A DNA stretch of 64,000 nucleotides, taken from assembly GCA_041661275.1 (NCBI GenBank), contig JBAZUU010000003.1, positions 92,833-156,832 of the forward strand, in the 5' to 3' direction. The notes under the pieces were generated by a model. The model saw nothing but the letters and a program-made list of their open reading frames with translations. It had not been told where the DNA came from and searched no databases. How positions within the stretch are numbered: position 1 is the first letter of the stretch; each line of letters begins with the position of its first letter. Source of the stretch: Parcubacteria group bacterium. Its GTDB lineage: Bacteria > Patescibacteriota > Minisyncoccia > Moranbacterales > UBA2206. This document shows, one piece after another, positions 5,914-55,392 of the stretch. Made by a program: the position numbers and the translations under genes.

Positions 5914-5966
5914 TGCGACGACGATAGTCGGAGCGGATGAGGTAAGATAAATACAAAAATAAAATC

Positions 5967-7172
5967 ATGAAACAGCACGACGAAGCTTATAATAAGGGGA
6001 AAATGAGACTTATTAGTTTTGTTGCTTTTCTTATGGGATTTGCGCAAGCGGTGCTTCTCTATGTGATGTCCACTTATTTTAAGCGAGCTTCCGGAATAGA
6101 GAATATAGGACTATTTTATCTCGTGGCTTACGCCATAACACTTATCATATATTTAAATCTTCATAAAATCATAAAAAAGATTGGCAAATCCAATGCTTTT
6201 TTCTTTTCCTTGTTTTTCAAGATTATTGCCATTGTGATACTTATGAATTGGTCGCCATCATATATCACAGTCATCGTGATGATGTTTTATATAATTATGG
6301 GCAATCTGGAGTGGCTGAGTCTGGACATCATCATCGAATCTTTTTCTACCGATACAATGTCTGGGCGCATCCGTGGTCGGTATCTAACCATTCTCAACGC
6401 CGGACTGCTTCTTGGTCCATTTGTTTCCACTTCTCTCCTTGCTAAATTTGATTTTTGGGGAGTATTCTTGGCGCTTTTCATATTTAACTCACTGATATTT
6501 GTCATTTCTCTTTTTGGACTTGCTAATGTCAATCATAAATTTGAAGCCAATCTGACATCGCGCGCTCTGCTCAAAAAGATTTTTAAGAGAAAAAACATTA
6601 TGCGAGCCTATTACGTTTCATTTGTTTTGGAATTTTTCTATGCACTGATGATTATTTACACGCCTATCTATCTGCGTGATTCCGGGCTTTCCTGGGAACA
6701 GATCGGTTACATTTTTACCGTAATGCTCATTCCTTTCGTTCTAGCGCAATACCCGATGGGAGTTTTGGCTGACAAAAAGTTCGGGGAAAAAGAATTTATG
6801 ATTTTTTCCTTGATAACAATGGCTCTTTCCACGGGCGTCATATTTTTTATCGGAACTTCAGATGTGGCTGTTTGGGCATTAGTTTTGTTTTTGACTCGAA
6901 TCGGGGCGGCGCTTGTTGAGGTTTTGCGCGACTCCTATTTTTTCAAACGCATCGACGCGCATGACGTCGATATCATCGATTTTTTCCGCACCGCTCAAAG
7001 CTCGGCCTACATTCTCGCTTCCATCATATCAGCCATCATTCTCATCTTTTTCTCTATCAAAGTTATCTTTCTTGTGGTAGCTTTTGTAGTCTTTTCCGCC
7101 CTCATTCCGGCCATAAAGCTTCGGGATAATAAGTGCGAGGAGGAAATTTTGGCTGAAAAAGCGGTATTTTGA
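5967..7172 (+). CDS. multi-pass membrane transporter (MFS-like)
   Basis: The 401-aa protein is highly hydrophobic with about 12 predicted helices. Confidence 0.55.
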   Translation: MKQHDEAYNKGKMRLISFVAFLMGFAQAVLLYVMSTYFKRASGIENIGLFYLVAYAITLIIYLNLHKIIKKIGKSNAFFFSLFFKIIAIVILMNWSPSYITVIVMMFYIIMGNLEWLSLDIIIESFSTDTMSGRIRGRYLTILNAGLLLGPFVSTSLLAKFDFWGVFLALFIFNSLIFVISLFGLANVNHKFEANLTSRALLKKIFKRKNIMRAYYVSFVLEFFYALMIIYTPIYLRDSGLSWEQIGYIFTVMLIPFVLAQYPMGVLADKKFGEKEFMIFSLITMALSTGVIFFIGTSDVAVWALVLFLTRIGAALVEVLRDSYFFKRIDAHDVDIIDFFRTAQSSAYILASIISAIILIFFSIKVIFLVVAFVVFSALIPAIKLRDNKCEEEILAEKAVF

Positions 7173-7228
7173 CCAAATCTTTAGAGTGATGTATAATTTT
7201 ACGGCGGAATAAAAATTATATTTTCATT

Positions 7229-7432
7229 ATGAGAATTACTAAGTGTGACATTTGCGACAAGACAATTAAGGATACGGCAAAAAGTGTGTGGGTTTCAATC
7301 GGTGGTTTTCTTTCTACGGATTCCTTCCAAGTCTGTCTTGATTGTGGTAAACCGGTGACAAAATTTCTAATAAGTAAAAAATTAGTTAAAAATAATAAAG
7401 ATGATAAAAAATATGCAAAAAAAAGCAAATAA
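7229..7432 (+). CDS. small zinc-ribbon protein
   Basis: CDIC...CLDC pairs with a Lys-rich tail. Confidence 0.4.
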   Translation: MRITKCDICDKTIKDTAKSVWVSIGGFLSTDSFQVCLDCGKPVTKFLISKKLVKNNKDDKKYAKKSK

Positions 7433-23497: not shown

Positions 23498-24192
23498 AGC
23501 ATATAATTCTTCCGGGACTGACAACTACGCCGAAATCTGATTGGCGGGAAAAGATAAGAGAAATTGATCGATGTAGTATTGAAGAAATTGCACTATTTCC
23601 AACTTTTTTAGAACTGCCTGGCAGAAAAGAGCTTTATAGTCTCTTAGAAAATACCAAACTTAAGAGAATCCCGCATGTTCATCTACGAAGCGATATGGAA
23701 GCCTGGGAACTTGAATTGTTCAATAATAAATATAAAACCGAAGTTTTTAATATTCACCCGGAGCCAACAGAGCTAGGATTTCTTGAAAATTTAAAAAAGA
23801 CGGACAATGTCTATGTTGAAAATACTAACAAGATAACTGATTTTTATTTCGAAGTTGCGGATATGTGCGGTGGAGTCTGTCTGGATATTTCTCATTGGGA
23901 AGATTATGGTATTCCGGAGGGCTATGATGATTTCTCCCAAAAAATAGAAAAATATAAGATCGGTTGTTCTCATATATCGGCCATAAAAAAAGATTTTAAA
24001 ACTTGGGAACATTATACAACCAAGGAAAAATTAAATCTCTATAGCGATCATTATATGGACGATTTGAGTGAACTGGATTATGTGAAAAAATATGTCCAGT
24101 ATCTACCTGAATATGTTAGCATTGAGCTGGAAAATTCATTCGAAGAACAACTGAAAGTGAAGGAATATTTGGAGAAAATCATTAATGGATAA
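23494..24192 (+). CDS. hypothetical protein
   Basis: 232-aa ORF whose start overlaps the recJ stop. No family was recognised. Confidence 0.4.
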   Translation: MKHIILPGLTTTPKSDWREKIREIDRCSIEEIALFPTFLELPGRKELYSLLENTKLKRIPHVHLRSDMEAWELELFNNKYKTEVFNIHPEPTELGFLENLKKTDNVYVENTNKITDFYFEVADMCGGVCLDISHWEDYGIPEGYDDFSQKIEKYKIGCSHISAIKKDFKTWEHYTTKEKLNLYSDHYMDDLSELDYVKKYVQYLPEYVSIELENSFEEQLKVKEYLEKIING

Positions 24193-24691
24193 TAAAGTGA
24201 AAAAGGAAAAAATGATCATTTGTCGGGATATAAAGGGTAAAAAACTTGAATATCCCTTGAGTAAACTCAACTGGAGACCGTCTATTTACGGAGTTATCGT
24301 AGAAAATGATAAAGTTTTACTTTCCAAACAGTGGGACGGTTATGATTTTCCCGGAGGAGGAATAGATCTGGGTGAAACCTTAGAAGAGGCGCTGAAAAGA
24401 GAGGTTTGGGAGGAAACGGGCGTGAAAGTCAAGATTCTCGATCTAATAACCTGCGAATATGATTTTTTTAAGTTACCCCACGAAGATGGTTGTGTCCAAT
24501 CTATTCTTATCTACTATCTTTGTAAAAAGATTGGAGGGAAGATATCTATGGATAATTTTGATGAGCATGAAAAAAAATACGCCGACATGCCGGAGTGGGT
24601 AGATCTCAAGAAAGCCAGGAAAATTAAATTTTACAACCCGGTCAATAGTGTGGAAATAATTAAAAAAGCATTAAAACTATGTCAGAAGTAA
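24185..24691 (+). CDS. NUDIX hydrolase
   Basis: Nudix box GGGIDLGETLEEALKREVWEETG. Confidence 0.75.
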   Translation: MDNKVKKEKMIICRDIKGKKLEYPLSKLNWRPSIYGVIVENDKVLLSKQWDGYDFPGGGIDLGETLEEALKREVWEETGVKVKILDLITCEYDFFKLPHEDGCVQSILIYYLCKKIGGKISMDNFDEHEKKYADMPEWVDLKKARKIKFYNPVNSVEIIKKALKLCQK

Positions 24692-43058: not shown

Positions 43059-45128
43059 ATGAAAAAAATACTAATTTTTCCAATCAGCCTATATTTCTTT
43101 TTGGCTTTTTTTATTTCTCCAGTTGGGGCGGAAAAGATTGTCCCTGATGATGTTGAGCATGTCGATTCCACTTCAGTTACGATGAATATCAAATCCGATT
43201 CGACGATTGCTGTTACGGAAAAATTTGAATACGATTATGCCGGTCATGCCCGGCCGGGCGTAACCCGATATATCCCGATAACATACCGGGATCTGGACGG
43301 AAAAAAGATCTCGATTGACATTTCCGACGTTAATGTCACAGATGAAAACGAAAATCCGCTTTTTTTCAGTCAGGATACGGTAAAAGATGATAACAAGAAT
43401 AAATCATATCTGGCTATCACAATTATCGACGATCAAGCGACGGCGCCAGGGGCAAAATCCTGGTATTCTATCCATTATACAGTTTCGGGCGCTATAAGAT
43501 TCAAATCAAATGAAGATCAGCTTTTTTGGGATGCGACCGGCGACAGATGGTCGGTCTATGTGGCATATCCGGAGATAAAAATATATTTGCCACAAAAAAT
43601 TGATCGCAACAAAGTAACGAAGTCGTGCTTTATCGGACTCAAAGAAGCAACTATCGATTGCATCGACCGGATTGAAAATCGGAAAGATCCTGATGCCTAT
43701 TTTTCCTACAAAGGCACGGTGTCTTACGAGAGTATGACTACTCTCGTCAAATTTCCCAAAGGCGTTGTTCAAAAAACAACTTCAGCACAGCAAAGTTATT
43801 GGAGCGCTCTCAAAGATGACTATTGGAAATTGGCGGAAATCATACTCCTAACATTATGTTTATTCTCCACTGCCACTTTTTTTGTTACGCATTTTAAGAA
43901 AATAATACGATACGAGTGGCGAAAACGGGCGCGGGAAATTATATCTCGGTGGAAAGAAATAAGGATCGCTCATGCTCATAGAATCAGAAATAAAAGCCGG
44001 AAATGGTGGATAGGCGCTTTTACTGTCTTGGCTGTAGTTGTACTTAGCGGACTGATGGCTTTTTGGAAAATAGATAACACTTTGAATAAAATTTCCACCA
44101 AAGGCGAGTCTGTCTCGAGCATTGCTCAAGCCAGTCTTGGCGGAGGCGGACAAATAAAGGGCGAGAGTGATGGACGGATAAATCTACTGCTTCTCGGAAT
44201 GCTTGGCGCGGGTCATCCCGGTGGAGGACTCAATACTGATACGATTATGGTGGTGAGCGTTGAGCCGAAAAATAATCGAATGTCTATGATTTCTATCCCG
44301 CGGGATCTCTGGGTAACTGACCCGGGACGCGACAGTAAAAGCAAAATAAATGCTGTTTATGCTTACGGCGAAGAGAAAGGGACTGGTCGAGGAATAATAG
44401 ATATGGAAAATTTGATTGGAGACATAACCGGTCTTCAGATCCACTATACCGCCGTGGTGAGTACGCAGGCTTTTTCACGTCTGGTTGATACTTTGGGCGG
44501 AGTGGAAGTGAAACTCAAAGAACCTTTTTCCGAAAATATCCAATTCAATGATGTCAAGGTTTGCGATTCGGATACATACACTGTTCCAACCGGAGAAACT
44601 GAACAAAAGAAAAACGAGAAAGGAAAAGTAGTGGCTGAATACCCGCTTTGTAAAAATAAAACTCCGGAATGTGGCGAAAATTTCAGCCTCCCGGCCGGAA
44701 AAAATAACCTAACTGGCGCGCAAGCGCTTTGTTTTGTCCGGTCGCGATATGAGACCTCTGATTTTGAAAGGGCCAAGCGTCAACAGTTGATCATCGGACA
44801 GATCAAAGAAAAAGCGACGCAACTTGGTATTATGGATTTTTCCAAAGTCAATTCTATTTTGGATAATATGGGCGACAATGTCCGGACTGATATGCAGCTT
44901 TGGGAAATGAGGCGGCTTTTTGACATTTATAAAGGAATGGATAACCCAAAAGTGTATCAAAGGGTGCTTGAAGATTCCAAGGAGGGTCTGCTTTATTCAC
45001 CCGACAAATCACCGGAAACCGGATTTATTCTGCTTCCAAGAGGCGACAACTATGACAAGATCCGCGATTTGTTCAAAAATATTTTCTTCATGGCTCAAAC
45101 CCAGTCGGACATCAAGCCGAAAATATAA
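43059..45128 (+). CDS. LCP (LytR-CpsA-Psr) family protein with large N-terminal extracellular domain
   Basis: Signal peptide, mid TM, and a C-terminal LCP core (LLLLGMLGAGHPGGGLNTDTIMVVSV...ISIPRDLWV). Confidence 0.75.
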   Translation: MKKILIFPISLYFFLAFFISPVGAEKIVPDDVEHVDSTSVTMNIKSDSTIAVTEKFEYDYAGHARPGVTRYIPITYRDLDGKKISIDISDVNVTDENENPLFFSQDTVKDDNKNKSYLAITIIDDQATAPGAKSWYSIHYTVSGAIRFKSNEDQLFWDATGDRWSVYVAYPEIKIYLPQKIDRNKVTKSCFIGLKEATIDCIDRIENRKDPDAYFSYKGTVSYESMTTLVKFPKGVVQKTTSAQQSYWSALKDDYWKLAEIILLTLCLFSTATFFVTHFKKIIRYEWRKRAREIISRWKEIRIAHAHRIRNKSRKWWIGAFTVLAVVVLSGLMAFWKIDNTLNKISTKGESVSSIAQASLGGGGQIKGESDGRINLLLLGMLGAGHPGGGLNTDTIMVVSVEPKNNRMSMISIPRDLWVTDPGRDSKSKINAVYAYGEEKGTGRGIIDMENLIGDITGLQIHYTAVVSTQAFSRLVDTLGGVEVKLKEPFSENIQFNDVKVCDSDTYTVPTGETEQKKNEKGKVVAEYPLCKNKTPECGENFSLPAGKNNLTGAQALCFVRSRYETSDFERAKRQQLIIGQIKEKATQLGIMDFSKVNSILDNMGDNVRTDMQLWEMRRLFDIYKGMDNPKVYQRVLEDSKEGLLYSPDKSPETGFILLPRGDNYDKIRDLFKNIFFMAQTQSDIKPKI

Positions 45129-45461: not shown

Positions 45462-45559
45462 CAGAAGACAACATGGATTACTAGATCCAGGGGAGGCCGA
45501 TGGCTTCCCTTTTATTATTGGCAATATTGACAATATAAAAATGTAATATAGAATATAAA

Positions 45560-45586
45560 TTAGCACTCGGACTTGACGAGTGCTAA
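45560..45586. promoter_or_regulatory. CIRCE operator (HrcA binding site), perfect
   Basis: TTAGCACTC-ggacttgac-GAGTGCTAA, upstream of hrcA. Confidence 0.85.
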
Positions 45587-45728: not shown

Positions 45729-46466
45729 ATGGAAGAGCGTCATAAAAAAATTCTATCAGCGATTATTGAAGAATATACTAATTTTGCTGTTCCGGTTGGT
45801 TCAAAAATTCTTGTTGAAAAATACGGTTTTGATTTGAGTCCGGCAACGATCAGAAATGATATGCAGGAGCTGGAAGAAAAAGGATTTCTTCATCAGCCGC
45901 ATATTTCCGCCGGAAGAATTCCGACTGACAAAGGCTATCGTTTTTTTGTGGAAGAGATAATGAAAGATCAAAAACTTTCCCCAAAAGATCAGAAAAAATT
46001 GCAAACAGAAGTGTTGAAACTAAAAGCGCAAAATAACCGACTTTCAAGGACTACCGCCAAGCTTCTCTCGTCCCTTTCGGGAAATCTGGCCATCACTGGT
46101 CAAGAAAATGATTTTTATGATTTTGGGATGAGCGAGCTTCTCTCAAAACCGGAATTTCAGGCTATCGATGAATTTTGCCGCGTGGCGGAAGTGCTGGATT
46201 ATATTGATGAAAATATTGATACGATTCTCGCCCAAGTCAAAGACGGTGAAACTAAGATTTTCATAGGCAAGGAAAATCCGATCAAAGAAATTTCCAACTG
46301 TTCGATGGTCGTCTCACCATATATGACAAAATCAGGTGAACGAGGAGTGTTGGCCATCATTGGTCCAAAGAGGATGAAATATGCCAAGAACAAATCACTT
46401 TTGGATTATGTCCGGAAACTGATCAGTCCAGCGGCTGTAATATTAATAATAGTAGTAAGTATTTAG
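45729..46466 (+). CDS. hrcA: heat-inducible transcription repressor HrcA (short form)
   Basis: ILSAIIEEYTNFAVPVGSKILVEKYGFDLSPATIRNDMQELEEKGFL. Confidence 0.8.
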   Translation: MEERHKKILSAIIEEYTNFAVPVGSKILVEKYGFDLSPATIRNDMQELEEKGFLHQPHISAGRIPTDKGYRFFVEEIMKDQKLSPKDQKKLQTEVLKLKAQNNRLSRTTAKLLSSLSGNLAITGQENDFYDFGMSELLSKPEFQAIDEFCRVAEVLDYIDENIDTILAQVKDGETKIFIGKENPIKEISNCSMVVSPYMTKSGERGVLAIIGPKRMKYAKNKSLLDYVRKLISPAAVILIIVVSI

Positions 46467-46490
46467 TAGAAAGTATAAAGCGTAAAAAAA

Positions 46491-46521
46491 GAAGTAAGAA
46501 GTAAGAAGTAAGAAGTAAGAA
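46491..46521. repeat. (GAAGTAA)x4.4 heptanucleotide tandem repeat
   Basis: gaagtaagaagtaagaagtaagaagtaagaa, just upstream of the grpE-fusion start. Confidence 0.9.
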
Positions 46522-46529
46522 AAATTGCT

Positions 46530-47399
46530 ATGGAAGATAAAGAAAACAGAAAATATCCGGAGCCGATTGTCGGCGCTTTGATAATGGACGATGAAGGAAA
46601 AATATTTTTGGCCAAAAGCCACAAGTGGAAGGGAAAATATACAATACCCGGAGGCCATGTTGAAATGTTAGAAAAAATAAAAGAAGCGGTTGAAAGAGAA
46701 GTTAAGGAAGAAACTAATTTGGATGTGGAAATGGTTGATTATATCGGAGCTGAGGAAAGTATAAATAACAAGGGTTTTCATGAGGAAAGACATTTTATTT
46801 TTATTGATATTCTATGCGTTCTCAAGGGAGGCAAAGATGACTTGAAGCTCAATGATGAGTTTGATGGGGAATTTGTTTGGATAGACCCCAAAAAAAGTGT
46901 GGAATTGGATTTAGCTGAAGGAGCTAAAAAAATAGTAGAAAATTATTTGAAATATAAAAAAAGAGAGGAATATCTTGATAGCTGGAAAAGATGCCAGGCG
47001 GATTTTGAAAATTACAAAAAGCGGCAAGCAGAGATGCTAAAGGATACGTATAAATATGCTAATCAGGGGTTGATACAGGAAGTCTTGCCGGTTTTGGATA
47101 ACTTTCACGCTTCCACCGAACACGTTCCATCTGACCAAAAAGATGAGCCTTGGGTGACGGGCATTATGCATATCCAAAAACAATTAGAAAAAGTGCTGGA
47201 AGATAATAATGTTAGTGAGATAAAAATAAAAAAGGGTGATAAATTTAATCCGGAAGTGATGGAAGCGATAAAACAAGAAACAAAGAACAATGAACAAGGA
47301 ACAGGAGAGGAATGTAAGAATATTGTGAAGCAAGTGGTGGCGCGAGGATATAAGATTGGCGAAAGAGTCATTAGGGCGGCGAGAGTAGTGGTGGAATAG
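46530..47399 (+). CDS. grpE: NUDIX hydrolase domain fused to GrpE nucleotide-exchange factor
   Basis: The N-terminus carries the Nudix box GGHVEMLEKIKEAVEREVKEETN. The C-terminus carries the GrpE motifs DFENYKKR, VLPVLDNF and RGYKIGERVIRAARVVV. It is a single 289-aa ORF. Confidence 0.7.
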   Translation: MEDKENRKYPEPIVGALIMDDEGKIFLAKSHKWKGKYTIPGGHVEMLEKIKEAVEREVKEETNLDVEMVDYIGAEESINNKGFHEERHFIFIDILCVLKGGKDDLKLNDEFDGEFVWIDPKKSVELDLAEGAKKIVENYLKYKKREEYLDSWKRCQADFENYKKRQAEMLKDTYKYANQGLIQEVLPVLDNFHASTEHVPSDQKDEPWVTGIMHIQKQLEKVLEDNNVSEIKIKKGDKFNPEVMEAIKQETKNNEQGTGEECKNIVKQVVARGYKIGERVIRAARVVVE

Positions 47400-47563
47400 A
47401 GTACATTGAAATTCACCCCGTGGAGTAAATTTTGCTCCGCAAAATTATTTTTCTGTAGGAAAAATTACTCCACGGGGTAAAAAAAACCGGCTGGGCGGAA
47501 ATCCGACCAACCGGAAGAGGGGGAATTGCAGGCGAGTTTGTTTACGCGTGCATCAGACAATGG

Positions 47564-47953
47564 TTAAGCTTCGGGGCAAAGGCCGCCCTGGCTAAGGTAG
47601 TTGGCGATTATGTCCGGATTATCGGTATCAAGCAATTTGGCTGTCTCGGCGACTGCTTCCGATCCGAACTGGCGCATAATGCGCAGCTATGCGAAGTCCC
47701 GACGCTTCGTCGGGGTTTGGGCACTGCCGCATAGCGGGAGTTCTGCGATGTGTCGCGAGCGATTGTGACGATAAATCCTGTTTATTTCATCGCCCAAATT
47801 CGCAGAGCTGCGCATTCTGCAAGATGGAGCGGAGCAAAGCGACGCGACATTTTGCAGAACTGATCTCATAGAGATCTTGTTGAAGAGGCGTCTCATTAAT
47901 TGTTCGTAAGTAAGGTCTTTTACTGCGATTTCTTCCATCATTACTCCTTTCAA
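47564..47953 (-). pseudogene. GC-rich hypothetical gene interrupted by a 114-bp in-frame palindromic insertion (ATGA-coupled to the upstream gene)
   Basis: The minus-strand frame continues through TAG at 47687 into ...LRIMRQFGSEAVAETAKLLDTDNPDIIANYLSQGGLCPEA*. The insertion 47694-47807 is flanked by gcgcataatgcgcagct / agctgcgcattctgc. Confidence 0.3.
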
Positions 47954-48192
47954 TGTTTTTCTGTGGAAGCAAGATTATAAGCTGCTAAGCTCATACAGAC
48001 ATTGTCGAATTCTTCTGACTGGAATACTATCCCTTTAGCTTCAGATACTTGATATTCGCGAAGAGAATGTTCCAGTTGTTGGATGATTTCATGAAAAATT
48101 TTCATATTTTCCTTATCCCAAGGTCCGCCAAAGTAGAGATTCTCTAATTTCCTTAGGAGGTTCATCTCTTCCTGATGTTTAACGATAATCAT
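47950..48192 (-). CDS. hypothetical protein (about 80 aa), upstream partner of the disrupted gene
   Basis: GGAGG before the ATG at 48192 (minus). Its stop overlaps the next ATG as ATGA. Confidence 0.35.
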   Translation of the reverse strand: MIIVKHQEEMNLLRKLENLYFGGPWDKENMKIFHEIIQQLEHSLREYQVSEAKGIVFQSEEFDNVCMSLAAYNLASTEKH

Positions 48193-48404
48193 GCCCGACC
48201 TCCAATATAAGTTGATGTGGAAAAGAACAGTCAAAGCCGCAGACTATAAAATACTGTTAAATTGCTGCTTTGTCAAATAGTTATCCTTTTAGCTGCTAAT
48301 TATATTGGCAGTTGAAATAAATAACTAATGTAAATAATTTTCAAACCCCTCCTTTTGTTCCTCCCCTTAGAAAGGGGAGGAGGACAAGGTAGGGACAAAA
48401 AATA

Positions 48405-51339: not shown

Positions 51340-52695
51340 ATGGGAAAAACAAAGGAAGTCTCGACTGGTCAAACAAGGAACGGTAAAAATAGTTCCGCTT
51401 ATGTTCCTGACACCAATGTCTTTATAATCGATCCCAAAGGAGCTGTCAAGCGTCTGCAAGCGGATGGAAGAGATGTCGTCATTCCGTGGATATCCATTAT
51501 GGAGCTTCGCGGCTTGACAAATCGGCCTGACATTGCCTATGAAGCCAGGACGGCGCTCAAAACCATAAGAGCGGCATTAAAAAATTACTACCCCTCGGTG
51601 AGTTGTTGCCGCAAATTTTCAACCAGATTTTTGAAAGACTTGGACAGGAGCGAGAATGATGATAAGATAGTCGCCACAGCAGCCACGCTTCTGAGAAATC
51701 ATGAGTACGAAAAGGTCACAATCGTCACCAGAGATGAAACGATGTCGATGATAGCCGAGGAACTAGGAGTCGACGTTATGGATTATCCCTACGATAAGGT
51801 CGACACTCTCAATATCTCGGCAATAAAAGAAATCAACGTGCCATTTGATGTTATCGATTTTGAAAGTCTTACCTTTCCTCTCGATGATGATGAATACGCG
51901 GGAATCATGCAAAATGAAGGGGTTATCTGCCGCAGCGACTGGCGTCCCAACGGCCAGAGAGGAGACTGGGCGCCAGCTTTCGCTGCTATCAGGAAGGGTA
52001 ATGTTTTTCGGATAATTCCCGATGACATCGAGGCGGTTGGTATTAAGCCGTATAACATCAACGGTAATGGGTCGAACTGGAGCCAAAAAATAGCATTGTA
52101 TCAACTACTTGATCCTGAAATCAAATTCGTGATTCTTCACGGCTCAACTGGCAGTGGAAAAACTCTCTTGGCTATTGCTGCTGCCATTGCACAGCGGTCG
52201 AAGTATGATCAGATCATCATTATGCGTCCGATGGTTCCTGTCGGTGGCAAAGATGAGCTTGGCTTTCTTCCCGGTGACAAGGAAGAAAAAATGGCTCCGT
52301 GGCTGCGTCCGATCCAACAGGCCTTCAAGGTTATCAAGAAAAGGGGATCGTGCAAGGTTGACATTCCTGATATGATAGAGAAGGAAAAAATCATCTTCGA
52401 ACATATCGGACATGTCCGCGGAATGACCTATAACGACGTCTTTATTATTGTCGATGAGACGCAGAACTTCGATTCAAACTCGGCTAAGTCGGTAATTTCG
52501 AGGCTCGGCGAGGATGCCAAGATGATTTTTACTGGCGATCTTGGGCAGATAGACCATCGATTTATCAATGAGAAGACTAGTGGCCTGGCGCATGCCATTG
52601 TCCATATGTCTGATCATCCTGAACTTGCAACGACGTTTTTTGTTGATACGGTTCGCTCCAACGTAGCGAAGTTAGTTCAGGAAAGATGGAAATAG
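51340..52695 (+). CDS. PIN-domain plus PhoH-like ATPase (YlaK-type)
   Basis: N-terminal PIN (YVPDTNVFI). PhoH Walker A ILHGSTGSGKT and LGFLPGDKEEKMAPWLRPI. Confidence 0.85.
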   Translation: MGKTKEVSTGQTRNGKNSSAYVPDTNVFIIDPKGAVKRLQADGRDVVIPWISIMELRGLTNRPDIAYEARTALKTIRAALKNYYPSVSCCRKFSTRFLKDLDRSENDDKIVATAATLLRNHEYEKVTIVTRDETMSMIAEELGVDVMDYPYDKVDTLNISAIKEINVPFDVIDFESLTFPLDDDEYAGIMQNEGVICRSDWRPNGQRGDWAPAFAAIRKGNVFRIIPDDIEAVGIKPYNINGNGSNWSQKIALYQLLDPEIKFVILHGSTGSGKTLLAIAAAIAQRSKYDQIIIMRPMVPVGGKDELGFLPGDKEEKMAPWLRPIQQAFKVIKKRGSCKVDIPDMIEKEKIIFEHIGHVRGMTYNDVFIIVDETQNFDSNSAKSVISRLGEDAKMIFTGDLGQIDHRFINEKTSGLAHAIVHMSDHPELATTFFVDTVRSNVAKLVQERWK

Positions 52696-52858
52696 CAAGC
52701 ATCTTTAGTCAAAAACATTTGCGAGCGTGGGAACCTTTTTTGGTTCTACACGCTCTTTTTTGTGTTTGGTCGCATGAGTAATAAATAGTGTTTTCCTAAA
52801 GTATTTCCAATTCTATCTTTTTATGGTATTATATTATCAAATAAACAAAAACAAAAAT

Positions 52859-54181
52859 ATGTCACAAGAAACATCGAACCAAGGTGGTCCAAAATTAAAT
52901 AAAAAAGGCTGCGCTATTTTTGTGATTTGCGTAGTCCTTTTTGTTTCAGGAAGTTTTCTGGTCGATTTGGCGGGCGGATTTCCGATGATCGTCAATTGGT
53001 TTTTCACTCATGGCGACAAGGAACCGACTATTGAGGAAATTTTGAAGGGGACAGAGCCGACGGCGGCCAGGCAATATACCTTTCAAGAACCGACCAGGGA
53101 AGCGAAAAGCAGGACGATTGATTGCAAAAAACTAAATGCTTTTTCTGAACTGAAACCGCAAAATCCGCTTTGTCTTAATCTCTATAAAACAAACGCCAAG
53201 GAGATTGATGATAAGATTCAAACCGGCCAATACGATCGCATTATTCTGTATGGACAAAATTTAATCTTTGACGCTCCGTCGCAGTGGGAAATAGAGGATG
53301 TCCCTGGTGTGGATAAGCCAAAAGATACCAGTGTTAAAAGAGACGAATTGGCTCAACATGTTTATCAAAGCGCATACTTCAATGACCAAATTACTATGCC
53401 GGCCTTGCTTAAACTTTATGGTCTCAAGGATCTAAGCTTACAAAAAACTGTCTTTAGCGGGAGGCTGATATTTCCTTACCCGGCTATTTATTCCAGGGTG
53501 TCGACATATCAGGATCGAAAGGTTCTCTGTAAGGATTCATTGGAAAAAGACGGAACACCGCAGGGTTGCGCCCATCAATTCTGGAATAATGTCGTGAGCT
53601 ACAGTGCTATCAGAAATCCGATGTCTATGCCTGAGCAGAGGGTTCATCGAAACGGCCGCGAAGATTTCCTTTATTTTGATCAGAACCAGCCTCAAAACTG
53701 TTTTACCAGCGATATTTTCATGCATGAGACAGCCCATAATCTTCTCAGTCTTTCTATGTATGCCGGAAAACATATGGTGGGGGAAGGGGAGTTAAAATAT
53801 TTTAACGAGCATCAGGCGGGCTTTGCCGGAGATATGTACAGCGAAATAGCTTGCGGGGAAGGAAATGTTGTTAACCTAAAAACTAACAAAAAGGTGTCAT
53901 TCGACAGCATTATGTCCTATAATTCTATCTATCCGGCTGGTGAAATGTCCTCATCTCATCCTATTGACAATCAATGCCGGCTGGCCGCACTTACTCAGTG
54001 GAACCGAATACTTAATGCAAAAAATTGGCAGGAGAAATTTGCTGGTTTTTATACCTTGCTTCGTGATAATTCCAAAACAAAACCGTTTCAAACTGATAAA
54101 GATTTTATAAAGTTTGTCTCTGATGCATCTGGTGACCCAAACGCTGTGGCCTTTCTTAATTCCTACGGCTGCGGACTATAG
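52859..54181 (+). CDS. membrane-anchored hypothetical protein with HExxH (zincin-like) motif
   Basis: N-terminal TM. IFMHETAHNL motif. No family confidently recognised. Confidence 0.45.
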   Translation: MSQETSNQGGPKLNKKGCAIFVICVVLFVSGSFLVDLAGGFPMIVNWFFTHGDKEPTIEEILKGTEPTAARQYTFQEPTREAKSRTIDCKKLNAFSELKPQNPLCLNLYKTNAKEIDDKIQTGQYDRIILYGQNLIFDAPSQWEIEDVPGVDKPKDTSVKRDELAQHVYQSAYFNDQITMPALLKLYGLKDLSLQKTVFSGRLIFPYPAIYSRVSTYQDRKVLCKDSLEKDGTPQGCAHQFWNNVVSYSAIRNPMSMPEQRVHRNGREDFLYFDQNQPQNCFTSDIFMHETAHNLLSLSMYAGKHMVGEGELKYFNEHQAGFAGDMYSEIACGEGNVVNLKTNKKVSFDSIMSYNSIYPAGEMSSSHPIDNQCRLAALTQWNRILNAKNWQEKFAGFYTLLRDNSKTKPFQTDKDFIKFVSDASGDPNAVAFLNSYGCGL

Positions 54182-54201: not shown

Positions 54202-54228
54202 TTAGCACTCTCGACCAGGGATTGCTAA
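54202..54228. promoter_or_regulatory. CIRCE-like operator, one mismatch
   Basis: TTAGCACTC-tcgaccagg-GATTGCTAA, upstream of dnaJ. Confidence 0.55.
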
Positions 54229-54276: not shown

Positions 54277-55392
54277 ATGGCGGATTACTATAATATACTT
54301 GGAGTTTCCAAGGGTTCGTCGGATGACGAGATAAAAAAAGCCTATCGAAAATTGGCGCATAAATATCATCCGGATAAAGCCGGCGGAGACGAAAAAAAAT
54401 TCAAAGAAATAAACGAAGCCTATCAAGTGCTTTCGGATAAATCGAAACGCGAACAATATGACCGTTTCGGAAAAACTTTCGAAGGTGGAGGTTTTTCCGC
54501 CGGAGGCGGATCCGCCTATGGCGGAGATTTTTCCGGTTTCGATTTTAGCAATTTTTCTCGTCAACAAGGGGGCGGAATCAACTTCGAATTTGGTGGTGAA
54601 GACTTGGAAGATATTTTCTCCAATTTTTTTGGTGGCGGACGAGGTCGAGCGCAAGCAAGAAAGAAAAGAGGACAGGACATCCAGGTGGATGTGGAAATAG
54701 ATTTTTTGGAAATGATCCGTGGAACAGAACGGGAAATTAATATTCGAAAAAATACCACTTGTGATCGCTGTGCGGGAACGGGCGGGGATCCAGGCTCGGA
54801 ACAAAAAACTTGTCCGGTATGCAAAGGAGCAGGACGGGTGCAAAAAACCTCCCGCAGTTTTTTCGGCTCATTTTCGCAAGTGACGACTTGTCCGGAATGC
54901 CAGGGAGAAGGGAAAATATGGGAGAAAAAATGTTCCAAATGCAAAGGCGCGGGAAGAACTCAAGAAAACCAAACGATAAAGATTAAAATTCCAGCTGGCA
55001 TTGAAAATGGTGGTGTTATTTCCGTTTCTGGTGTGGGTGAAGCTGGTGAAAAAGGCGCGAGTGCCGGAGATCTCTATATAAATGTTCATGTCCGGTCGCA
55101 TCCTAAATTTGTCAGGCATGGCCTCGATATTCACAGCGAAGAAACTATTTCTTTTTCCTTAGCTGCACTTGGCGGGGAAATTTCAATCGAAACTGTTGAT
55201 GGACAATTAATTCTCAAGATTCCTGCCGGAACACAATCAGGAGAAATTTTCCGGATAAAAGAAAAAGGTGTGCCAGAGGTTCGCGGTCGCGGTCGGGGAA
55301 ATCAGATGGTAAAAATAATCGTCACGATCCCCCGGAAGCTAACACGCGAGCAAAAAGAATTGATCGAGAAACTGGGGAAAACAGGAGAGTAA
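54277..55392 (+). CDS. dnaJ: molecular chaperone DnaJ
   Basis: J-domain YYNILGV...HPDK, a G/F region and four CxxCxGxG repeats. Confidence 0.95.

Follow-up and report, generated by a model that had tools for sequence, protein, structure and literature searches.

In a 64,000-nucleotide stretch of DNA from a Parcubacteria group bacterium (contig JBAZUU010000003.1 of assembly GCA_041661275.1; hereafter the window), the grpE gene encodes a Nudix hydrolase domain joined to the N-terminus of GrpE, the nucleotide exchange factor of the chaperone DnaK. This Nudix-GrpE architecture is real and conserved in the ultra-small, uncultured Moranbacteria, and it is apparently undescribed. It is a clade-wide variable feature and is not unique to the source genome. 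We hold with moderate confidence that the product is a working GrpE under the control of the repressor HrcA and its operator CIRCE (controlling inverted repeat of chaperone expression), and that it carries an active accessory hydrolase of nucleoside or dinucleoside polyphosphates, which is co-regulated with GrpE and scaffolded by it and is not obligatory for nucleotide exchange.

A Nudix hydrolase fused to GrpE

The initial annotation of the window, made from the nucleotide sequence, described one unbroken open reading frame (ORF) of 289 amino acids (aa) with an N-terminal Nudix domain and a C-terminal GrpE domain, and regarded the architecture as non-standard. All of this was borne out. The following features were assigned to the gene.

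46530..47399, forward strand: nudix-grpE fusion gene, 289 aa, ATG start, zero internal stops
46530..46964, forward strand: complete Nudix module of type A (aa 1-145), comprising a 10-aa polar stub, an alpha/beta/alpha fold and a C-terminal helix
46653..46721, forward strand: Nudix box GHVEMLEKIKEAVEREVKEETNL (aa 42-64)
46917..47060, forward strand: continuous helix from the Nudix C-terminal helix into the GrpE stalk (aa 130-177), assigned by DSSP on the AlphaFold2 (AF2) model; the predicted local distance difference test score (pLDDT) of this block is 93-96
46965..47396, forward strand: GrpE module (aa 146-289), comprising the stalk, the four-helix-bundle helices (179-197 and 207-225) and the beta-domain (228-288)

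The encoded protein is identical in sequence to P0001, which carries the NCBI title 'MAG: nucleotide exchange factor GrpE [Parcubacteria group bacterium]', and every Nudix and GrpE motif quoted in the initial annotation was found in it. Both domains scored above the curated Pfam cut-offs. NUDIX (PF00293) matched aa 12-138 with 68.3 bits against a gathering cut-off of 21.1 (E value of 9e-19), and GrpE (PF01025) matched aa 142-288 with 126.3 bits against 25.8 (E value of 1.2e-36), covering positions 24-163 of the 165 in the profile. The scores with the species-specific GrpE equivalogs of NCBIfam fell under their high cut-offs, as would be expected of so divergent a phylum. A literature search that included a 2025 review of GrpE-like factors found no description of a Nudix-GrpE fusion.

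Distribution of the fusion

We surveyed 80 loci from 80 different assemblies, which are species-representative genomes in GTDB. The Nudix-GrpE fusion was present in 50 of them. The hrcA gene was found in 78 of the loci and dnaK in 73, and the order hrcA-(X)grpE-dnaK was observed wherever the contig was long enough. In 78 loci hrcA lay directly upstream of grpE; in the other two, a contig end cuts the locus or the sequence does not extend far enough to show it. The initial annotation had raised the possibilities of a frameshift joining two genes and of a stop codon between the domains in other assemblies, and had proposed a survey of related genomes for fused and separate genes. The same ORF recurred in more than 100 independent sequence clusters as well as in the 50 genomes, which come from many studies. 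The 80 loci contained no stop between the domains and no Nudix gene standing separately between hrcA and grpE, and split or decayed intermediates of the fusion were not seen among them.

An exhaustive HMMER scan covered 1.84 billion representatives at 50% identity, and architectures were tallied among the best 150. These included 37 type-A Nudix-GrpE, 31 type-B Nudix-GrpE and 3 tandem Nudix-Nudix-GrpE proteins, together with 1 nucleotidyltransferase-GrpE, 54 plain GrpE and 19 stand-alone Nudix proteins. At 50% identity, Nudix-GrpE proteins make up at least 70 clusters. Among the database relatives of the window protein, the best 120 were 275-320 aa long with identities of 40-62%, and nearly all of them contained both Pfam domains. 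Where the source names the organism, the carriers are Moranbacteria, Parcubacteria, Pacebacteria or Patescibacteria; all fusion carriers are Patescibacteria, mainly Moraniibacteriota.

The protein P0098 in locus L094 was considered as a split gene and rejected, as a scaffold gap of 10 N (L094 547..556) lies inside the Nudix domain. Owing to this gap, the gene callers gave a 167-aa 'GrpE' (P0098) and a 105-aa fragment, and the frame downstream of the gap continues the type-A Nudix domain into GrpE. L094 is a true type-A fusion and the closest relative of the window protein, with 72% identity in the GrpE half.

Some metagenome-assembled genomes (MAGs) titled 'uncultured Bdellovibrionales/Pseudobdellovibrionaceae' (TPA_asm binchicken) share the locus (L003, L011, L015, L017, L020, L021 and others). 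Their DnaK is ~76-86% identical to that of the window, and they are nested within the Moranbacteria tree. These names look like mislabels.

The Nudix domain

The Nudix box of the window protein, G42-x5-E48-x7-R56-E57-V-x-E60-E61-T-N-L, keeps every Glu and Arg position of the consensus GX5EX7REUXEEXGU. Its only departure is N for the penultimate G, which most family members have. We compared the fusion proteins in alignments of 36 and 112 sequences. G42, R56, E57, E60 and W117 were invariant in both. E48 and E110 did not vary in the smaller alignment and were conserved to at least 90% in the larger one, and E61 was conserved to at least 90% in both. An alignment of the window protein with 35 homologues, nearly all stand-alone, showed 13 invariant residues, all of them present in the window protein and six of them in the box. 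Judged from its sequence, the Nudix half looks active as a metal-dependent pyrophosphohydrolase.

The stand-alone relatives are Nudix proteins of ~140 aa (135-170 aa) from Anaerolineales, Sedimentisphaerales, Peregrinibacteria and Nanoarchaeia, with identities of 42-54%. They stop near residue 140-150 of the window protein, indicating an end-to-end join of a complete enzyme with GrpE. No chaperone linkage was found in the gene contexts examined for the stand-alone type-A homologues, which lie in an archaeal exosome/ribosomal superoperon, beside mnmA, or among unrelated genes. In the archaeal case (L091/L092, 4001..4444), the superoperon contains SBDS, Rrp4, Rrp41/42, L31e, eIF6, Nudix, S24e, Spt4, Rpb7, a second Nudix and PIN. 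This context hints at an RNA-linked role for the type-A Nudix family.

A sequence search of solved structures matched the N-terminal half to many Nudix enzymes. Foldseek likewise recovered many Nudix structures for its alpha/beta/alpha fold, with a probability of 1.00 and target-normalized TM-scores of 0.8-0.84. The top matches, with E values of ~1e-10, were the diadenosine hexaphosphate (Ap6A) hydrolase Ndx1 from T. thermophilus (1VC8) and the diadenosine tetraphosphate (Ap4A) hydrolase aq_158 from Aquifex (3I7U). Together with the nearly tied NudI and CTP pyrophosphatase, these neighbors tentatively point to nucleoside or dinucleoside polyphosphates as the substrate class.

The Nudix half (46530..46955) also matched PDC-S07, a phage-defence-candidate model of PADLOC, over nearly its full length (E value of 3.5e-12), which probably reflects generic Nudix similarity. 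The sole other Nudix gene in the window is a stand-alone gene of 168 aa at 24185..24691 on the forward strand (PF00293). It is marginally Nudt16-like (28.7 bits against a cut-off of 27), and its best sub-threshold matches are MutT, YtkD and RppH.

The GrpE domain and the helical junction

The C-terminal half matched solved GrpE structures from Geobacillus (4ani, E value of 1e-12), Thermus, Mycobacterium, E. coli and human mitochondria; the matched entries include 3a6m, 1dkg and 8gb3. In the alignment with E. coli GrpE, G122 corresponds to G211, R183 to R279, R186 to R282, P151 to P241, F86 to Y176 and V192 to V288. The aligned counterparts of the residues for DnaK binding (G122, R183 and neighbors in E. 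coli) are thus kept in the window protein, and G211 and R282 were invariant across 112 family members. The GrpE half shows every testable hallmark of the family except the typical disordered tail. Such a pseudo-substrate tail is typical of bacterial GrpE and is not family-defining. The conserved residues suggest that the GrpE half is a working exchange factor that would dimerize and speed up the loss of ADP from DnaK.

We predicted the structure of the monomer with AF2 using a 112-sequence alignment. The mean pLDDT was 88.3, and the helices 130-177, 179-197 and 207-225 and the strands at 228-288 in the GrpE half mostly had values of 80-96. The first helix is 48 residues long; its first ~16 residues belong to the Nudix C-terminal helix and the rest to the GrpE stalk.

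The initial annotation stated that the Nudix domain replaces the disordered or long-helix N-terminal region of GrpE. This holds for the disordered tail and not for the helix, since helix 130-177 is unbroken in the AF2 model and the tail is seen in the plain relatives. In close relatives with plain GrpE, an acidic low-complexity tail of 20-60 aa occupies the position of the Nudix domain. The shared GrpE conservation begins at 'EYLDxWKRCQADFENYKKRQ' (about aa 146 in the window protein and ~56 in E. coli). In E. coli, the motif 17-IIM-19 binds the GrpE tails to the substrate-binding site of DnaK, and the tails thereby favor the release of clients (PMC12915176). The fusions have no such IIM motif and carry just a 10-aa polar stub, whereas an 'EE-I-[IV]-V' motif resembling it is retained in several plain tails of Moranbacteria. 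Only the 10-aa polar stub MEDKENRKYP precedes the Nudix fold in the window protein, and an IIM-like pseudo-substrate tail is absent.

Interchangeable N-terminal modules

The Nudix domains attached to GrpE formed two deep clades. Type A includes the window domain, and type B is 30-38% identical to it. A third, divergent Nudix type was found in L022 and L066, with S or L at box position 7. These two had been considered as decaying domains, which was rejected as their RE-x2-EE core is intact. Tandem Nudix-Nudix-GrpE proteins of ~440-450 aa also exist, arranged as B-A-GrpE in L004 (about 5920-7260), P0042 and P0304 and as B-B-GrpE in P0311 and P0335. The tandem forms suggest stepwise accretion at the N-terminus.

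In L042, L053, L063 and P0312, a domain of ~165 aa stands at the GrpE N-terminus in place of Nudix. The AF2 model (pLDDT of 92.7) and Foldseek identify it as a predicted minimal nucleotidyltransferase of the Pol-beta fold. A G-S...D-x-D motif is invariant in this domain, and the folds closest to it are those of TM1012, the MenT1 toxin, ANT(2'')-Ia and LnuA; a search of Protein Data Bank sequences with the family profile gave no match. Its homologues are otherwise stand-alone and, instead of grpE, have nucleotide-salvage genes as neighbors (dCMP deaminase, adenylosuccinate lyase or a HIT hydrolase), with 4-bp overlaps in the case of dCMP deaminase and the HIT hydrolase.

A tree of DnaK and HrcA served as the species proxy. 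It was built at the neighbor-joining level with 100 bootstrap replicates and is not a full ancestral reconstruction. The module states were interleaved on this tree, and mixed clades had 100% bootstrap support, namely L042 (nucleotidyltransferase) with L070 (plain), L052 (type B) with L074 (plain), and a clade of four type-A and five type-B genomes. The window grouped with the type-A genome L001 in 0 of 100 replicates, and its closest genomes by DnaK (~88%), HrcA (~77%) and the GrpE domain (65-70%) are carriers of type B. The plain GrpE P0306 is 72% identical to the window GrpE half, closer than most fused forms. The distances of both the type-A Nudix domain and the GrpE domain correlated with the species proxy (rho of 0.87 each), indicating long vertical co-inheritance of the two; type B correlated poorly, with a value of 0.38. 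We infer that A-GrpE is old and vertically inherited, and that other modules were added N-terminally or swapped in, with repeated losses.

The heat-shock locus

The initial annotation placed the gene in an hrcA-grpE-dnaK-dnaJ block. The hrcA gene indeed lies upstream and dnaK downstream, whereas dnaJ is set 3.9 kb downstream of dnaK behind a CIRCE of its own. The features of the locus are as follows.

45527..45554, forward strand: sigma-70-like promoter TTGACA-16-TAGAAT, directly upstream of CIRCE, with 11 of 12 consensus matches (a consensus match only)
45560..45586, forward strand: CIRCE operator (HrcA site) TTAGCACTC-N9-GAGTGCTAA, 27 nt, 0 mismatches; 0.01 expected by chance from shuffles
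45729..46466, forward strand: hrcA, heat-shock repressor, 245 aa (PF01628 HrcA, E value of 8.8e-24), 63 bp upstream of the fusion gene
46489..46521, forward strand: perfect tandem repeat of a purine-rich 7-bp unit (AAGAAGT x4.7) between hrcA and grpE; it stops 8 nt short of the start codon
48405..50327, forward strand: dnaK, the partner Hsp70, 640 aa (PF00012, E value of 2e-261)
51340..52695: PIN-PhoH gene between dnaK and dnaJ
52823..54181: unknown 452-aa gene between dnaK and dnaJ
54202..54228, forward strand: second CIRCE, upstream of dnaJ, 1 mismatch
54277..55392, forward strand: dnaJ, 371 aa, with a J domain, a CXXCXGXG zinc-finger domain and DnaJ_C

Terminator prediction gave nothing in the 63-bp spacer between hrcA and grpE. 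Together with the standard promoter-CIRCE-hrcA-grpE arrangement, this suggests that hrcA and the fusion gene are co-transcribed under HrcA control. The AAGAAGT repeat may be a ribosome-binding region, or may be prone to slippage. No separate CIRCE was found for dnaK within 3 mismatches.

An insert of 1 kb holding two small antisense ORFs separates grpE from dnaK. These ORFs (48234..47950 and 47953..47687, reverse strand) overlap by 4 bp in a toxin-antitoxin-like layout, and family searches gave no credible match for them. The gap between grpE and dnaK ranges from 20 bp to 2.7 kb in relatives, so this is an insertion-prone spot. Directly after grpE, a structured element at 47416..47477 has a 13-bp outer stem around two hairpins, with a minimum free energy of -33.7 to -35.4 kcal/mol (z of -5.5 to -6.8) and an A-run flank on the forward strand. 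It is not a canonical terminator, had no significant match in Rfam and is not repeated within the window. Just upstream of the heat-shock operon, a gene at 43059..45128 on the forward strand encodes 689 aa with an N-terminal DUF2207 and a C-terminal LytR_cpsA_psr (LCP) domain.

Possible functions of the fusion

The evidence above is consistent with an orthologous grpE that would encode a two-module co-chaperone. The C-terminal 145 residues, with their dimerizing stalk, four-helix-bundle segment and beta-domain, would bind to the nucleotide-binding domain of DnaK and expel ADP. The N-terminal 145 residues would form a complete and catalytically competent minimal Nudix pyrophosphohydrolase of an otherwise stand-alone family. 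As the last Nudix helix continues into the stalk, the GrpE dimer would hold two Nudix domains rigidly at the stalk tip, where the pseudo-substrate tails normally sit. The CIRCE-gated, sigma-70-type promoter and the predicted co-transcript with hrcA would place the Nudix domain in the heat-shock regulon at a 1:1 ratio with GrpE. Its likeliest activity is the hydrolysis of nucleoside or dinucleoside polyphosphates, that is, a 'house-cleaning' of stress nucleotides of the diadenosine polyphosphate (ApnA) or nucleoside triphosphate type. The coupling to GrpE would most likely consist of co-regulation and a dimeric scaffold, not of an obligatory step in exchange. We favor such an accessory enzyme because sister lineages use a plain tail or another module and because the stand-alone homologues have no chaperone context. 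The analysis shows the architecture, the conserved catalytic and DnaK-contact residues, the operon position, CIRCE, the continuous helix of the model, the loss of the tail and the evolutionary lability of the module; the exchange activity, the Nudix activity and its substrate class, the co-transcription and the reason for the fusion are inferred.

Several points weigh against this reading. The substrate class is a guess, because no curated Nudix subfamily among the NCBIfam equivalogs reached its cut-off and the fold neighbors were nearly tied. The scores were 42.4 bits against 95 (NF012016) and 37.0 against 156 (NF007834) for the NudI/NudG models, 27.9 against 97.9 for MutT (TIGR00586), ~22-28 against 116-139 for the RppH models, and 45.8 against 158 for NudC, the last in the Nudix-box region only. 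NudI, CTP pyrophosphatase, GDP-mannose hydrolase and MutT lay within two orders of magnitude of the top Foldseek matches. The AF2 model is a monomer prediction with a predicted TM-score of 0.63, which gives neither the orientation of the modules nor the dimer geometry. No second close grpE was found among the 80 assemblies or within the 64-kb window, and for the source genome this lone-grpE result covers the window only. Insertion into the operon alone could give co-regulation, so the two modules may be physically coupled more closely than this reading assumes. The exchange of the substrate-release tail for another domain might in itself change how DnaK works.

The main rival to an accessory enzyme is a direct role in the DnaK cycle, which we consider unlikely. 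The Nudix domain would then be mechanistically integrated, acting on adenine nucleotides or Ap4A at the nucleotide site of DnaK or on nucleotide-modified DnaK or clients. Alternatively, it would take over the role of the tail by touching the substrate-binding domain of DnaK, and client release would then respond to the levels of nucleotides or alarmones. The Nudix domain sits exactly where the tail that binds this domain normally lies, the fusions lack the IIM-type motif, and the predicted join is a rigid continuous helix, not a flexible linker. Furthermore, the top fold neighbors include ApnA hydrolases, and at least four nucleotide-handling modules (three Nudix types and one nucleotidyltransferase) occur at this one position. 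Ap4A was reported to bind to DnaK, GroEL and ClpB (Johnstone and Farr 1991, as cited in PMC7705103), which is a lead and not evidence. However, close lineages manage with a plain tail or another module, so no module is essential to exchange. Tethering also fails to concentrate a freely diffusing small molecule, and the stand-alone homologues show no linkage to chaperones. In addition, the stalk tip is distant from the nucleotide cleft of DnaK in the known GrpE-DnaK structures 1DKG and 4ANI.

A near-neutral accident appears rather improbable. It would mean that the tail tolerates appended domains, that small genes between hrcA and grpE fuse and are repeatedly lost, and that any functional coupling is no more than chance. 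The interleaved states, with plain GrpE as sister to fused forms at 100% bootstrap (L042 with L070 and L052 with L074), the closeness of the plain P0306 to the window GrpE half and the insertion-prone flanks of grpE are consistent with it. However, the type-A Nudix domain co-diverges with GrpE over the full depth of the clade, with DnaK identities of 71-88%. The catalytic residues remain invariant, the recruited modules are all nucleotide-handling enzymes, and the 80 loci lack the split or decayed forms that intermediates would leave.

More speculatively, and with little probability in our estimate, the N-terminus of Moranbacteria GrpE could be a docking platform that holds interchangeable nucleotide-handling enzymes beside the substrate-binding domain of DnaK. 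In that case, ApnA turnover or a reversible nucleotidylation of DnaK or its clients would control the Hsp70 cycle or the clients themselves. The modules concerned are the three Nudix types, the tandem Nudix and the MenT/ANT-like nucleotidyltransferase. If true, this would be a new layer of chaperone control in place of the pseudo-substrate tail mechanism.

We consider it very doubtful that the Nudix domain serves without catalysis as a structural or regulatory cap, for instance as a dimerization aid, thermosensor or ligand sensor. The N for the penultimate glycine of the box, the S or L at box position 7 in the third Nudix type and the rigid helical join could suggest such a role. However, E48, R56, E57, E60, E61 and E110 show full invariance or at least 90% conservation among the fusions and do not vary in the mostly stand-alone alignment, a pattern expected from purifying selection on catalysis. 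Finally, a frameshift or chimera fusing two separate genes has a negligible chance, although the source is a MAG, because the ORF is kept across many assemblies; the sole apparent split was a scaffold gap, and no evidence for such an artefact was found.

GrpE is among the best-studied co-chaperones, and the client-release role of its tail was only recently shown. A whole clade of bacteria has swapped the tail for a folded and, by its conserved residues, apparently active enzyme, and the sister lineages provide natural controls. With plain tails, other Nudix types, tandem Nudix domains and a nucleotidyltransferase at the same position, they amount to an evolutionary experiment on the purpose of the tail. 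Through the fusion, a connection of nucleotide or alarmone metabolism with the Hsp70 machine becomes testable. The fusion is also an example of how Patescibacteria, with their reduced genomes, combine functions under a stress regulator, of which they have few. Public sequences are annotated by one half only, as 'nucleotide exchange factor GrpE' or 'nucleoside triphosphatase', which hides the other half.

Comparison with known systems

Compared with canonical GrpE (E. coli, 1DKG; Geobacillus kaustophilus, 4ANI), the fusion shares the Pfam GrpE domain with its stalk, four-helix-bundle and beta-domain, the counterparts of G122, R183, R186 and P151, and the hrcA-grpE-dnaK slot under CIRCE. However, the disordered IIM-type tail of ~33 residues in canonical GrpE is replaced by a folded enzyme of 145 aa, and the first third of the stalk helix comes from the Nudix C-terminal helix.

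The stand-alone Nudix family (P0185-P0303; 'nucleoside triphosphatase' in JGI) resembles the Nudix half in length, fold and the 13 invariant residues, with 42-54% identity over the whole domain. Its members are free-standing in unrelated gene contexts, as opposed to the fusion with GrpE. Neither a structure nor a substrate is known for any member of this close family; among solved structures, the closest folds are 1VC8, 3I7U and NudI (3OGA/6DT3), with target-normalized TM-scores of up to 0.84. By the profile scores, the fusion protein is a Nudix superfamily member that appears to lie outside every curated Nudix subfamily compared.

In NadM-Nudix (NMN [nicotinamide mononucleotide] adenylyltransferase/ADP-ribose pyrophosphatase), a Nudix domain is likewise fused to a partner as a second activity. 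In such fusions the Nudix domain is paired with an enzyme from the same metabolic pathway, whereas here it is paired with a chaperone cofactor that is not known to carry out any small-molecule chemistry.

The closest precedent is All4144 from Anabaena, a GrpE with an N-terminal helix-turn-helix (HTH) whose deletion mutant is still a nucleotide exchange factor (bioRxiv 10.1101/2025.04.14.648684). As in the window protein, a functional GrpE bears an extra N-terminal domain. However, the extra domain in All4144 is a DNA-binding HTH and not an enzyme, it occurs in another phylum, and modular variation across a clade has not been reported for it, as opposed to the exchangeable Nudix and nucleotidyltransferase modules of Moranbacteria GrpE.

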